From Planctomycetota bacterium (GTDB lineage Bacteria; Planctomycetota; J058): a stretch of DNA of 64,000 nucleotides. Made by a program: the position numbers and the translations under genes. How positions within the stretch are numbered: the stretch's first letter is position 1; the number at the start of each line of letters is the position of its first letter. Positions 24,729-29,111 of the stretch are shown here, piece after piece. A model generated the notes under the pieces. That model worked only from the letters and a program-made list of their open reading frames with translations. It was not told where the DNA came from and did not search any database. The stretch is from assembly GCA_016765095.1 (NCBI GenBank), contig JAESQQ010000719.1, positions 5,647-69,646 on the forward strand. The letters are read 5' to 3'.

Positions 24729-25100
24729 ATGGAATCGGCCCGCATTCTGGTGATTGACGACGACCCATTCGTCCGTGAATTGATCGCCGAAATGCTCTCG
24801 GCTGGACTCCACGAGGTTCGCGTCGCATCCAGCGAAGAGGAAGGGCTCCGGCTCTTCGAAGAGCAACGACCGGACTTGATACTCCTCGACGTTGACCTGG
24901 GTCGGGGCCGAAGTGGGTTCGACGTGTGCAGGAACCTCATGGCGCGGCCCGATCCTCCCCCGGTGATCTTCCTCACGAGCCATGCTGAGGCCGATTACGT
25001 CCGGGAAGGAACCGAAGCGGGCGCTCAGGGCTACCTCACTAAGCCCTTTAGCCCCTTGGAGTTGATCGAGAAGATCCAAGCAGTCCGAAGCGGACCTTGA
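24729..25100 (+). CDS. CheY-like single-domain response regulator
   Basis: ILVIDDDPFV, LILLDVDLG, IFLTSH and YLTKPF provide all the conserved REC residues. Confidence 0.85.
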   Translation: MESARILVIDDDPFVRELIAEMLSAGLHEVRVASSEEEGLRLFEEQRPDLILLDVDLGRGRSGFDVCRNLMARPDPPPVIFLTSHAEADYVREGTEAGAQGYLTKPFSPLELIEKIQAVRSGP

Positions 25101-26728
25101 GCGACTGGGCGCGGGAGCAGGCAATCCGGTTCGCGGGCGACCTGGGCCGTGTCTATGCTGAAGCCGAGGAGGACCGCCGACGGGTCGGGGCGATCGCAGA
25201 GATCAGCCTAGATCTGGCTCGATCGGTCTCGCTCGAGGCAGCCGCCTTGCGACTCTGCGGAGCCGGGGTCGGAATCTTGGGGTTGTCCTGCGCTGCGGTC
25301 TATCTCCGCCGGAAGGAGAAAACAGTCCGACAGGCGTGCCACCCGAAGAGTGGAGGCCCACAGCTGGGCCCCAAGGCGAGTGACCTCGAGTCTCTTAGCG
25401 GTCGGGTAGCCGAGTTCGACTCCACTCCCTGGACGAGCCTGTTCCCAGAGGGGGACCCGGTCACCGTGATTCCCCTTGTCGGGCGCGGAGGCTCGATCGG
25501 CTTCTTGGTCGGCGCAGGACGCATTTCGCAGCTCGAGGGCCCGAGCAAGGGGAGTTACCAGGATCTCCTCACTCTCCTGGCCGGACACGCTGGCGTGATC
25601 TTCGAGAACTTCCTCTTTGAAGAGCGTCGTGGGGCCTCACTCCGGCCCAAGTCAACACGGCGCAGCGCGGAAACGGCTCGCGCACCGCTGGCCCTTTTGG
25701 GCACCAGTCCCGCGATGCAAGAGATCCTGGGCATGATCGACCGCCTCGCCAAGGTTGACTCCTCGGTTCTGTTGGGCGGAGAGACTGGCACCGGGAAGTC
25801 ACTCGTGGCCCGGGCCATACATGACGCTAGCCCCCGAGCGGACAGGCCATTCATAGCGCTCAACTGCGCTGCCATCCCCGACGCGCTCGTGGAGTCGGAG
25901 CTCTTCGGTCACGAGGCCGGGGCATTCACGGGTGCCCAGCGCCAGCACCGCGGGAAGGTGGAACAGGCCGAGGGTGGAACGCTCTTTCTGGACGAGGTCG
26001 GTGAGCTCTCGCTAGGGGCCCAGAGCAAGCTGCTCACCTTCCTCGAAGAGCATCGCTTTGCCCGAGTGGGAGGTAGCAAGGAACTCCAAGTCGACGTGCG
26101 CGTTCTCTCGGCGACCAACGCAGACCTCGAGGCAGCGGTCCAGGAGAGCGCTTTCCGCAACGACCTCCTCTACCGACTCAACGTGTTTGTCCTCGAGTTG
26201 CCCCCGCTCCGGGCCCGTGGCGCAGACATAACGACGCTCGCGCAGCACTTTGCCCAGGAAGTCGCCGAGCGCTATTCGTTGCCCCTGCCGGCGTTCGGTT
26301 CTCAGGCCCAAGCGAGGCTTCTGGCCTATCACTGGCCGGGCAACGTCCGGGAGCTGCGGAACGTCATGGAGCGGGCGATCATCATGGCTGACGGCGGTCC
26401 GATCCCTGCGGAGCTCCTGCCTGCTGGCCAAAACCCGCTCAGCGAGTCGCCGGTCTTGGAGCCAGACACTCCCCCCGTGGCGCAGCCGCCCTCGCTGGAT
26501 CAAGGCGTGGGCTTCGCCGACGCGAAGCGTGAAATGATCCAGCGCTGGGAGATCGCGTATCTGCTGGCCGCGTTGAAAACCACCGGCGGAAACGTCGCCC
26601 ATGCCGCGAGGCTGGCCAAGATCGACAAGAAGAACCTCCAGCGCAAGATCAAAGGTTACGGGATCGACATTCAAGGGATCCGCGCGGGGCGCGCTCGGGG
26701 GGGCCCAGGCACCCCCGCGACTTCGTAA
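25097..26728 (+). CDS. Sigma54-dependent transcriptional activator (bacterial enhancer-binding protein) with a GAF-like N-terminus and no receiver domain
   Basis: AAA+ core with GETGTGKS, GAFTGA and ESELFGHE. C-terminal Fis-type HTH. The TTG start overlaps the REC gene stop (TTGA). Confidence 0.9.
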   Translation: MSDWAREQAIRFAGDLGRVYAEAEEDRRRVGAIAEISLDLARSVSLEAAALRLCGAGVGILGLSCAAVYLRRKEKTVRQACHPKSGGPQLGPKASDLESLSGRVAEFDSTPWTSLFPEGDPVTVIPLVGRGGSIGFLVGAGRISQLEGPSKGSYQDLLTLLAGHAGVIFENFLFEERRGASLRPKSTRRSAETARAPLALLGTSPAMQEILGMIDRLAKVDSSVLLGGETGTGKSLVARAIHDASPRADRPFIALNCAAIPDALVESELFGHEAGAFTGAQRQHRGKVEQAEGGTLFLDEVGELSLGAQSKLLTFLEEHRFARVGGSKELQVDVRVLSATNADLEAAVQESAFRNDLLYRLNVFVLELPPLRARGADITTLAQHFAQEVAERYSLPLPAFGSQAQARLLAYHWPGNVRELRNVMERAIIMADGGPIPAELLPAGQNPLSESPVLEPDTPPVAQPPSLDQGVGFADAKREMIQRWEIAYLLAALKTTGGNVAHAARLAKIDKKNLQRKIKGYGIDIQGIRAGRARGGPGTPATS

Positions 26729-26755
26729 CCCCTCTCCTAGACTGCACCGCGAGTT

Positions 26756-26797: not shown

Positions 26798-27666
26798 ATG
26801 AGCGTCGAGTTTGTCCGCCATTCAAGCACTGCGGAGGCCTGGGACAAGAAGTTCCTCAACCCCAGACGACTCCAGTGCGCACACCAGCCAGATCTGGCGG
26901 CGACCGCGATTCGTGGGCTCCTGCGCTGCGTGGAGGCAGCCTGCCGCGCCACAGCGCCGACGAGCTGGCCGAGCGCGTCCTCGAGCACATCCTCGAAAGC
27001 GGACTCGCGGAGCGCGGGGCGTTCCTAGGCTTCAAGTCTGGTTCGGGCCGGCCTGAGGTCGTTGCGACCGCCTTCTCCCACTCGTCTTTCGGTCACCTGC
27101 CAATAGACAGGAGCGTCGCGGACTACGTCTTCGACCGGGGCGTGGCGGTGGCCTCCTCGCGATCGGACGAGGACGGGAAGTGGCTCCTGGCCTGTATTCC
27201 GCTCCAACTCCCCGGTGAAGTCCGCGTGGCCGGTTGCCTCTACCTCGAGCGTCTGCCCGGCGCGGATCCATTCTCCACAGAGTGCCTGGAGGTCCTGATG
27301 CTCCAGGGGCGCTGCCTGATGTTGGGGTCCTCACAGCTGCGCGCCGACCCGCGAAACGCGGTGGACTCCAGCAGCGCGAAACCAGGCAAGCGTCCCGCTC
27401 CGGGCCCCACGAAGCCTGTGCAGTCGGCCTCGGGAGCATCGCACCCAGGGCGCACTCCTCAGCGTCCCGCCGCGTCGCCTCCCTCACGCCGCCCGCAACC
27501 TCTCTCGCCGACTGGTTCTTCCCGATTCCGAGCTTCCACCAAGACGAGCTGGTCCGTGCGTGCTGGAACGCCCGAGTCCTCAGAGTCTTCAAAACCCAAG
27601 CGAATCCCCCTGACGATCGGACTCCTGTTCTCCGATAGCGTCGCCAACCTTCCAGACTTCGAGTAG
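26798..27666 (+). pseudogene. Hypothetical GAF-like protein encoded in two overlapping frames: frame A 26798..27028 and frame B 26875..27666. This is an apparent frameshift or a sequencing error.
   Basis: Frame A has a good RBS and the sigma54 promoter but turns S/T/A-rich after about 26930. Frame B only becomes protein-like after about 26930 (ADELAERVLEHILESGLAERGAFLGF...CLYLERLPGADPF, GAF-like) and then turns into a Pro/Ser-rich tail. Confidence 0.4.
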
Positions 27667-27680
27667 GCAGGAGAGGCTCC

Positions 27681-29111
27681 ATGTCCCATTCCGACGCACT
27701 CACACGGGTCACCGAGAGCCCCCTCCTCCCTCCCCCACCCACTTACATGTCAGGTCGCGCCGTGAGTTCGCTCGATCCCTCAATCGGTTATGTCCCAGGC
27801 GGTTCCCCAAGCGCGAGCGCAGATCCACCCGGGGAGATCACGGAGGCGATTCCCAATGCGACCGGCGCTCGCGCTCCGTCAGCTCGGAAGCCCAAGCGAG
27901 CGAGAATCGCCGTTCTGGAGGACGATCCGCTCGTGCGCGAGCTCATTCAGGACGCGTTGGGCGAACGCGGCTACGAGATCGTCTCGTTCGGCGACTTGGC
28001 CTCGGCCACCAAGGCTCTCGCAGGGACGCCTCCCGATCTGCTCGTGAGCGACGTCGAACTCCCGGACGGGAGTGGATTGGAGCTCGTGAGGACCCTCCGC
28101 AAGCGCTATCCGAATCTCCCGGTTCTCGTCCAGTCTGGTCGAGTTGGGGAGGGCGACCTCCTGGAAGGCTTCGAGGCTGGAGCGTCCGACTACATCACCA
28201 AGCCGATCTCACTCGCTGAGCTCGCCGCGAAGTGCACAGTCCTTCTGGCTCGCGGGAAGGCGGCTTTCGAGGCGTCCAGTCAGCCCAACTTCGACCTCCC
28301 TGGAGGACTGAAGCGAGCGTTTGGTCGCTATCGAATCGACCGACTGCTCGGATCTGGGGGTGAGGGCTCGGTCTACGCGGCCTGGGACCTCGACGAGGGG
28401 CAAGAGGTCGCCCTCAAAGTCCTGCCCGCCCTCGCTGGACTCCGTGAAGACCAGCGGCTGCGTTTCGTCCGCGAGACCTACGCGCTCTCTCTGGTTCAGA
28501 GCGTCCACGTGACCCGGGTCCTAGACTTTGGGACGCTCGAGGGCCGGCCCTACTACACGATGGAACTCATCGACGGGACCAGCCTGCAAGAGCTGATCAC
28601 CGAGCGCGGGCCCGCGAGCGAAGCGCAGGTCCTTGTCCTCCTAAAGACGCTCGCGCAGGCCCTGGTCTCGGTCCACGCAGCAGGCCTCATTCATAGAGAC
28701 ATAAAGCCGGGCAACGTCGTTCTACGCCATGACTCCTACGCCGAGCCGGTCCTGGTGGACTTTGGGTTGGCCAAGCAGCCGGGAGACCACACGGTCACCA
28801 AGACCGGCGTCCTTGTTGGCACACCCGCCTACCTCTCTCCCGAGAGGGTCCGCGGCGAGCCCCTCGACGGGCGGAGTGACCTTTTCTCGCTGGGGCTCCT
28901 CGCGTTGTTCGCATGCACCGGGCGGCCCTGCTACTCCGAAGGGAGCCTCTTGGAGCTCCTGCACGACGTGGCCAGCCGCCCTGTCCCACTGCCGCGCGAG
29001 CTGAGCCCGGGGCTGCGTGAAGTCTTGGGTCGTCTCACTCAGCTGCAGCCCAGCGCACGCTACGCGTCGGCCACCGCTCTCCTCGAAGCGCTCCGCGCAG
29101 CGGGACACTGA
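27681..29111 (+). CDS. Hybrid response regulator / Ser-Thr protein kinase (N-terminal disordered region, REC, Hanks-type kinase)
   Basis: RBS AGGAGAG precedes the start. The canonical receiver has VLEDDPLV, LLVSDVELPDGSG and YITKP. The kinase has LGSGGEGSVY, VALKVL, HRDIKPGNVVL, DFGLAK and GTPAYLSPE. Confidence 0.9.
   Translation: MSHSDALTRVTESPLLPPPPTYMSGRAVSSLDPSIGYVPGGSPSASADPPGEITEAIPNATGARAPSARKPKRARIAVLEDDPLVRELIQDALGERGYEIVSFGDLASATKALAGTPPDLLVSDVELPDGSGLELVRTLRKRYPNLPVLVQSGRVGEGDLLEGFEAGASDYITKPISLAELAAKCTVLLARGKAAFEASSQPNFDLPGGLKRAFGRYRIDRLLGSGGEGSVYAAWDLDEGQEVALKVLPALAGLREDQRLRFVRETYALSLVQSVHVTRVLDFGTLEGRPYYTMELIDGTSLQELITERGPASEAQVLVLLKTLAQALVSVHAAGLIHRDIKPGNVVLRHDSYAEPVLVDFGLAKQPGDHTVTKTGVLVGTPAYLSPERVRGEPLDGRSDLFSLGLLALFACTGRPCYSEGSLLELLHDVASRPVPLPRELSPGLREVLGRLTQLQPSARYASATALLEALRAAGH

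Follow-up and report, generated by a model that had tools for sequence, protein, structure and literature searches.

Organization of the activator locus

The 64-kb window analysed here is the whole stretch of 64,000 nt taken from contig JAESQQ010000719.1 of a Planctomycetota bacterium, and its G+C content is 65.8%. It contains a gene for an activator of sigma-54-dependent transcription, which is preceded by the gene of a free receiver and followed, across a gap of 69 nt, by genes for a stand-alone GAF-fold protein and for two Ser/Thr kinases, designated kinase A and kinase B. The gap carries a candidate sigma-54 promoter directed towards the three downstream genes (Table 1). These genes show operon-like packing, with gaps of 14 and 3 nt, and the end of kinase B, the last gene of the putative operon, overlaps the convergent gene of a hybrid histidine kinase. 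The original prediction, made from the DNA alone, described receiver and activator as a split NtrC-like pair and proposed that the activator drives the downstream genes from a sigma-54 promoter behind its own gene. All its coordinates are right, both for the receiver joined to the activator by a TTGA overlap and for the motif, its -24 GG/-12 GC spacing, the ribosome-binding site GGAGGGG and the ATG at 26798.

Table 1 Genes and elements of the activator locus, with positions in the window.
Feature	Position	Strand	Evidence
Single-domain receiver, 123 aa	24729..25100	+	Pfam Response_reg 3.3e-29
Sigma-54 enhancer-binding protein (activator), 543 aa	25097..26728	+	Pfam Sigma54_activat 1.3e-68, AAA_lid_14 1.2e-22, HTH_8
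Candidate sigma-54 promoter TTCGGCACGATTCCTGCTC	26754..26772	+	Weight matrix, 15.43 bits
Shine-Dalgarno GGAGGGG	26789..26795	+	Read from sequence, 2 nt before ATG 26798
Stand-alone GAF-fold protein gene, frameshifted in the window	26798..27666	+	AlphaFold2 (AF2) and Foldseek
Receiver and Hanks-type Ser/Thr kinase (kinase A), 476 aa	27681..29111	+	Pfam Pkinase 1e-37, Response_reg 3.2e-24
Pseudo-receiver and Hanks-type Ser/Thr kinase (kinase B), 397 aa	29115..30308	+	Pkinase 1.3e-38, weak Response_reg 8.5e-10
Hybrid histidine kinase (PAS-HisKA-HATPase, four receiver stretches, Hpt)	30286..33813	-	Pfam

A candidate sigma-54 promoter downstream of the activator gene

The core motif, CGGCACGATTCCTGCT (26756..26771), is located 27 nt past the stop codon of the activator gene (TAA, 26726..26728). 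Its -24 GG at 26757-58 and -12 GC at 26769-70 are held at the exact GG-N10-GC spacing. The motif departs from the consensus YTGGCACG-N4-TTGCW at two positions: the T before the GG and the first T of TTGC are both replaced by C. Lying between genes and on the same strand as the gene that follows, the site has its GC 27 nt before the ATG. Given the usual distance of 12 nt from the GC, transcription would start near 26782.

We scored the window with a weight matrix of 19 columns. Its training set comprises 165 distinct promoter sites from S2 Table of PMC12316311, a mixture of RegPrecise 19-mers of Desulfovibrionales and classical promoters of E. coli. The site ranks first among the ~128,000 positions on both strands, ahead of scores of 13.9 bits (inside a gene, antisense) and 10.0 bits. 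The training promoters have a 5th percentile of 11.8 bits and a median of 17.9 bits, which places the site within the range of real promoters. The promoter assignment gains from the matrix scan, and above all from where the site lies: the chance expectation of such a score is 0.013 over all 24 gaps that precede genes in the window (4.9 kb, gene-oriented strand) and 1.8e-4 within the 69-nt gap alone. No other gene-upstream gap in the window exceeds 8 bits, the next best reaching 7.2. An enrichment is also seen in a control set of 80 loci of unrelated activators, which came from a metagenome scan in which the family alignment had hit on generic AAA+ patterns. Control loci with a G+C fraction of at least 0.6 contain eight matches this strong against 1.5 in shuffled sequence, a five-fold excess.

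The site is a good candidate for a sigma-54 promoter and lies at a position compatible with one. We consider it likely that it is a genuine sigma-54 binding site or promoter; it is probably a real promoter, and plausibly one served by the adjacent activator.

The second-best match in the window, ACTGGGACGCCTCTTGTAT at 36268..36286 (+), runs antisense within the hybrid kinase gene 34183..36996; chance alone would give about 0.45 matches as strong as its 13.9 bits in each window. Searching for the bare pattern TGGCACGNNNNTTGCW, with at most two mismatches allowed, was uninformative, giving nine matches against 6.55 expected.

The activator and its free receiver

The activator is composed of an N-terminal helix and a GAF-like alpha/beta domain (approximately residues 1-180), an AAA+ domain, a lid and a Fis-type helix-turn-helix (HTH). 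Walker A (GETGTGKS, residue 228), GAFTGA (275) and Walker B (LFLDEV, 296) are invariant across 27 full-length relatives. The C-terminal HTH_8 match reaches 23.2 bits (cut-off 22), and AF2 places helices at residues 500-534. With an AAA+ domain that carries both Walker motifs and GAFTGA, and with a C-terminal HTH, the protein is by its sequence an enhancer-binding protein, and it is the sole Sigma54_activat protein among the window's 37 genes. In the AF2 model (mean predicted local distance difference test (pLDDT) score 86), the AAA+ domain aligns with FlrC, NtrC1 and LuxO at a target-normalised template modelling score of ~0.9. The AAA+ domain dominated this structure search.

The GAF-like character ascribed to the N-terminus would agree with the order of strands and helices in the AF2 model but falls short in Pfam, where GAF_3 over residues 56-166 scores 24.8 bits, under the 27-bit cut-off. 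GAF_3 is likewise flagged in eight relatives of the activator. The domain has no significant sequence match among solved GAF domains, and homology to the downstream GAF protein was considered and rejected (hhalign probability 0.3%). In agreement with the earlier description, Pfam finds no Response_reg domain in the 543 residues; the receiver is a separate open reading frame of 123 codons.

This free receiver has a complete set of phospho-acceptor residues in its translation (D10-D12, D54, T83 and K105). Its stop codon overlaps the TTG start of the activator as TTGA, and from this overlap we regard the receiver as translationally coupled to the activator. The best NCBIfam matches are PhoB, MtrA, RpaB and OmpR (PhoB/OmpR-type, 1.9e-23), while those to NtrX and AtoC, at ~1e-15 to 1e-14, are eight to nine orders of magnitude weaker. 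Because the receiver is nearest to PhoB/OmpR-type receivers, the term split NtrC can be kept as an analogy and not as a statement of lineage. As read from its sequence, the activator is not an NtrC-type response regulator: it has no fused receiver, and its partner receiver does not belong to the NtrC subfamily.

A non-coding stretch of 598 nt precedes the receiver gene. It contains a tandem array (24303..24566) in which nine copies of the near-palindrome GGATCCGGACCC alternate with GGGTTCGCT, with periods of 28 and 57 in Tandem Repeats Finder. The array occurs once within the window, is absent from the related loci and has no Rfam match. A coding repeat is ruled out, as frames are not kept and the G+C content at third codon positions (GC3) gives no signal. 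The gene just upstream (23183..24130) shows a sub-cut-off match to NF047646, a REP-associated tyrosine transposase (RAYT; E=1.8e-4, 21 vs 80 bits), and to judge from these features the array may be a cluster of REP-like type next to a gene that is RAYT-like. Closer to the receiver gene, the region 24587..24706 contains GAGCGTCCCTCCATGACGCG twice in identical form, at a distance of 45 nt. After these copies come a perfect palindrome of 8 bp, GACGCGTC, and the inverted repeat CGACACCG/CGGTGTCG. These elements lie 20-140 nt before the receiver's ATG and may form the control region of a receiver-activator operon; neither sigma-54-like nor sigma-70-like sites were found in 24587..24706.

The downstream GAF-fold protein and receiver kinases

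The first downstream gene begins at ATG 26798 as had been proposed, but the reading frame opened there ends at 27028 within the window. The gene is split into frames 26798..27028 and 26875..27666, and GC3 changes frame near 26900. The window segment 22097..29728 matches a metagenome scaffold in ENA (TULL18-1_SAMN07571238_METAG-scaffold_214, 68,425 bp) with only two differences, a single C absent from the window at ~26951 (CGCCACAGCG in the window, CGCCACCAGCG in the ENA contig) and a substitution at 28610 (G in the window, A in the ENA contig). The frameshift in the window results from the 1-nt deletion, and the ENA contig carries the gene intact, encoding 289 aa (alignment of the window with L001). 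The shortened 76-aa product is itself a recorded protein in a public assembly; therefore, two assemblies or population variants disagree at this position.

Neither Pfam nor NCBIfam has a match for the 289-aa protein, and a word-based search returned only the protein itself. An exhaustive phmmer search recovered a small family of proteins of 232-322 aa with at most 38% identity (P0124, P0125, P0127, P0129 and P0130), and two hybrid histidine kinases that carry this domain N-terminally. Similarity to the homologues sets in at about residue 14 (W-x-K-R/K-F), and upstream of it the frame has no start codon other than ATG 26798, so that the conserved N-terminus of these distant homologues supports it as the start codon. 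The AF2 model, computed with eight sequences, shows a core at residues 10-178 (pLDDT ~90) and a disordered tail rich in Pro, Ser and Arg (180-289). A Foldseek search of the PDB gave 42 matches at E<=0.001, which are GAF domains or GAF-containing sensory modules, e.g. of phytochromes. They include 3ci6, 3cit, 3p01, 4g3v and 8jrc; GAF domains from three activators, Nlh1, Nlh2 and NifA, are also among them. Since the best PDB matches are GAF domains, the fold confirms the earlier description of this protein as GAF-like; one homologue also has a weak Pfam GAF_3 match. At the C-terminus, a motif R-x-PLT-x3-LF-x5-PDF (window 27540..27666) is kept past ~110 disordered residues and, as a sequence, looks like a docking peptide.

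The two genes that follow had been described as receiver-kinase genes. A receiver is indeed fused to a kinase domain in both, but Pfam identifies the kinases as Hanks-type Ser/Thr kinases and not as histidine kinases. Kinase A has a canonical receiver, with the acidic pair, acceptor Asp, Ser and Lys evident in an alignment with orthologues. The receiver of kinase B is degenerate, with VGKA in place of the acidic pair and the conserved Lys replaced. Both kinases keep the catalytic Lys (VALKV), HRD and DFG. The pair recurs in relatives, with the same degenerate receiver at L021:8028 and L016:6048.

Conservation of the neighbourhood

The activator is a member of a family of ~27 proteins, which can be aligned from end to end at 43-54% identity and come nearly all from Planctomycetota. 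Its nearest relative among 5.8 billion proteins is 54% identical, and a scan of genome contigs for close orthologues gave nothing above 45% identity, and this for the AAA+ domain only. Conservation was counted over 12 loci, the window and those of eleven relatives. In four of them (the window and, with an orthologous receiver, L015, L016 and L018), the genes of receiver and activator overlap by 4 nt as NTGA, and L015, L016 and L018 hold three of the four closest activator relatives. Seven of the 12 loci have receiver-Ser/Thr-kinase genes no more than a few kb from the activator, namely the window, four loci with co-directional kinase genes (L016, L020, L021 and L023) and two with convergent ones (L024 and L025). 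Because this neighbourhood is conserved, we argue for a functional link of the activator family to the kinases.

A family of trypsin-like proteins is encoded beside the activator in L016, L018, L021, L023 and L025, and two copies lie further off in the window. The sites that precede the trypsin-like genes of L021 and L018, described below, sit 11-27 nt before the start. At the same distance from the window gene 47677..48414 there is a degenerate site, TTTGGCTCGCGATTCGCGA (48436..48454, -), which scores 2.8 bits and has TCGC for TTGC.

Two further matches in relatives were discarded. An apparently homologous promoter block in L021, with TCGG, TGCT and TTCAGCAG in register and 18 of 30 positions identical without gaps, is at chance level (p=0.22). 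The minus-strand match in L015 (10.5 bits) is merely the reverse of the start-codon region of its receiver gene.

Proposed mechanism and alternative explanations

Taken together, the features of the locus suggest the following chain of events. Sigma-54 RNA polymerase would bind at the GG and GC elements as a closed complex, and the GAF-AAA+-HTH activator encoded upstream would remodel this complex by ATP hydrolysis through its GAFTGA loop. Transcription from ~26782 would then run through a three-gene operon (26798..30308) encoding the GAF protein, kinase A and kinase B, and the operon would end against the convergent hybrid kinase gene at 30286. The activator would take its input from its own GAF-like domain and, probably, from the free receiver, which the TTGA overlap would supply in fixed proportion. 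The free receiver and the receiver of kinase A would be phosphorylated by the neighbouring phosphorelay of hybrid kinases and Hpt domains (30.3-47.7 kb), the hybrid kinase at 30286..33813 being a candidate phosphodonor for both. We infer sigma-54 binding, the action of the adjacent activator, its control by the receiver, the start site and the operon, and place the whole chain, from a sigma-54 promoter in the gap through the adjacent activator to the three-gene operon, slightly above even chances. The proposal that the activator drives the downstream genes is favoured by the promoter candidate, the adjacent complete activator, the operon packing and the conserved neighbourhood; the strong site is not significantly conserved and no enhancer was found. 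In D. vulgaris, ten of 13 genes for receiver-less activators likewise adjoin a sigma-54 promoter, which in one case follows the activator gene (PMC4641369).

Several observations weigh against this chain, and some of them would fit a chance match in GC-rich DNA. In that case, the five genes 24729..30308 would form one transcription unit whose promoter precedes the receiver gene, and the targets of the activator would lie elsewhere. A score of 15.4 bits is reached somewhere in 17.7% of dinucleotide-shuffled windows, and the bare consensus is no rarer than expected. The score alone is therefore weak proof, and the placement of the site carries the weight. The matrix was built on Desulfovibrionales and E. 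coli promoters, not on those of Planctomycetota; the site, with C and not T before the GG, stands at just the 20th percentile of them, and the implied leader is only ~16 nt long. No rpoN (sigma-54 factor) gene is found by Pfam among the genes of the window. Neither a terminator-like nor a sigma-70-like site was found on the plus strand of 24000..30600; this result counts in favour of the proposed chain, and the lack of a terminator between the activator gene and the next would also fit read-through. The inverted repeats expected as upstream activating sequences were not identified: those in 26500..26760, at the end of the activator gene, proved to be coding by-products of repeated QR codons, GGATCCG is common everywhere, and no dyads shared by the 12 loci rise above shuffled controls. 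As just 27 nt separate the stop codon from the promoter, the only room for an enhancer is within the activator gene or at a greater distance. Before the kinase operons of five relatives, the best matrix scores are weak (3.3, 4.1, 2.8, 1.8 and <0 bits; p=0.12, 0.04, 0.15, 0.29 and 0.72 against shuffles) and not significant in combination (Fisher p=0.058). The identity of the L021 block is not counted as conservation because an unbiased test gives chance level for GC-rich gaps. A chance match would nevertheless have had to fall in one of the few places where a promoter is plausible, in the right orientation and with its -12 GC 27 nt before a start codon that is confirmed, beside the only activator gene of the window. 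It would also have to disregard the rule observed in D. vulgaris, that receiver-less activators co-localise with their promoters (PMC4641369). We therefore regard chance as an unlikely explanation.

The site could also be a real sigma-54 promoter that responds to another activator, encoded outside the window, with a trypsin-like gene and/or its own gene as the ancestral target of the activator family found here. The clear sites in relatives, which count against the proposed chain as well, point in this direction: a 16.2-bit site in L021 (3969..3987, p=0.001) and a 9.2-bit site in L018 (7755..7773, -, p=0.002) precede the trypsin-like gene, and a 10.3-bit site in L022 lies directly upstream of the activator gene (p=0.0035). 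The trypsin-like proteins form one family over five of the relatives' loci and the window, and L015 has a second activator gene 2.7 kb away. Because these clear sites precede other genes, the family appears tied to sigma-54-type sites while the gene that bears the site varies. On the other hand, the window's own trypsin-like genes (47677..48414 and 56090..56989) lie 20-30 kb off and their sites do not exceed 2.8 bits, no other activator is encoded within the 64 kb, and the neighbourhood of activator and receiver kinases recurs in seven of the 12 loci. Control by another activator thus seems rather improbable. A further possibility is that the sigma-54 holoenzyme binds without productive initiation and that the stalled closed complex serves as a roadblock or insulator against read-through from the activator gene. 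Many sigma-54 sites of E. coli are reported to be intragenic or unproductive. PMC4591121 describes a holoenzyme that is inactive on promoters and whose binding is widespread in E. coli, and bioRxiv 10.1101/086108 describes an insulation effect connected with stretches rich in C and T within sigma-54 promoters. In the minimum-energy fold of 26700..26830, the Shine-Dalgarno sequence is paired with CCCCUCU (26730-36), which suggested anti-Shine-Dalgarno insulation of read-through RNA. This was rejected after accessibility calculations with controls: in a longer transcript, the Shine-Dalgarno/AUG region has an accessibility of 0.42 in read-through RNA against 0.36-0.48 in promoter-initiated RNA and 0.33 with shuffled upstream sequence, and the fold energy is unremarkable (z = -1.0). 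A search for structured RNA in 24000..27900 gave no Rfam match at E<=1. A roadblock is accordingly a very remote explanation for the site, and initiation from a sigma-54 promoter opened by the adjacent activator is the reading we prefer.

Relation to known systems

An activator gene that adjoins a sigma-54 promoter is a textbook unit. NifA, Nlh1 and Nlh2 of Aquifex aeolicus, and FhlA share the order of domains seen in our activator, with a sensory domain of GAF type (GAF-like in our protein), an AAA+ domain with GAFTGA and a C-terminal Fis-type HTH, and no receiver; the activator would work in the manner of NifA and the Nlh proteins. Within the PDB, the family profile finds its best sequence match in A. 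vinelandii NifA (9qq6, 7e-106), and the top NCBIfam match of the activator is the nifA model, far under its cut-off. Unlike NifA-type proteins, the activator has a long helix ahead of its N-terminal domain, and this domain is sub-threshold in Pfam. There are also no nif, hyc or other metabolic targets near it; its neighbours are signalling genes. The locus resembles NtrB/NtrC in encoding a receiver alongside a sigma-54 AAA+ activator, with histidine kinases nearby. The receiver is a separate polypeptide with a 4-nt gene overlap, however, and the GAF-like domain of the activator stands where NtrC has its receiver.

In the psp system, PspA, the small product of the first gene in the target operon, feeds back on the activator PspF. 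That the GAF protein, as first product of the operon, might act on our activator in the same way is pure speculation by analogy. This product has a GAF fold with a disordered tail and no homology to PspA, and the promoter differs from that of psp in being co-directional with the activator gene, 27 nt past its stop codon. The pairing of a receiver-less activator gene with a sigma-54 promoter is shared with PspF-pspABC and with D. vulgaris DVU0569, where the promoter likewise lies downstream of the activator gene (PMC4641369).

The output of the proposed circuit sets it apart. Fusions of receivers with Ser/Thr kinases are listed in censuses of response-regulator output domains. Kinases A and B resemble known fusions in having, behind the receiver, a Hanks-type kinase domain whose catalytic motifs are intact. 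They differ in forming a conserved pair, a canonical receiver followed by a pseudo-receiver, that is linked to a sigma-54 activator family of Planctomycetota. A literature search found no paper on the arrangement of such a kinase pair with a sigma-54 activator family. The type of unit is known; uncharacterised are its output, receiver-gated Ser/Thr kinases with a stand-alone GAF protein, and its near-exclusive range in Planctomycetota.

This is a phylum in which almost no regulation has been studied; sigma-54 regulons have been described in it (PMC12316311). If the promoter is real, it would name the first target operon for this planctomycetal activator family, hint at what controls the synthesis of receiver-gated Ser/Thr kinases and provide a testable link of sigma-54 transcription and two-component phosphorelays with eukaryote-like Ser/Thr kinases. 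A wider and rather improbable extension would be a conserved planctomycetal circuit, in which a His-Asp phosphorelay feeds both a branch of free receiver and GAF-type activator and the receivers of the activator-driven Ser/Thr kinases, with the GAF protein as a PspA-like feedback partner and a trypsin-like protein as second output.

Neighbouring signalling genes

The putative operon is bordered by a dense phosphorelay island, a 17-kb run (30286..47660) with five large hybrid histidine kinases, two of them with Hpt. Their sensor domains are MASE3, PAS, GAF and 4HB/CHASE3, and one free receiver is encoded within the island at 33806..34186. A second signalling module, with no activator gene, is found at 56090..63420. 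It comprises a trypsin-like gene (-), a free receiver (-) that is 45% identical to the receiver at 24729, a PAS-kinase-receiver gene (-), a third receiver-Ser/Thr kinase (57775..59019) and a Ser/Thr kinase with an FHA domain (60131..61825). This set of genes is the one that flanks the activator in L023, L024 and L025.

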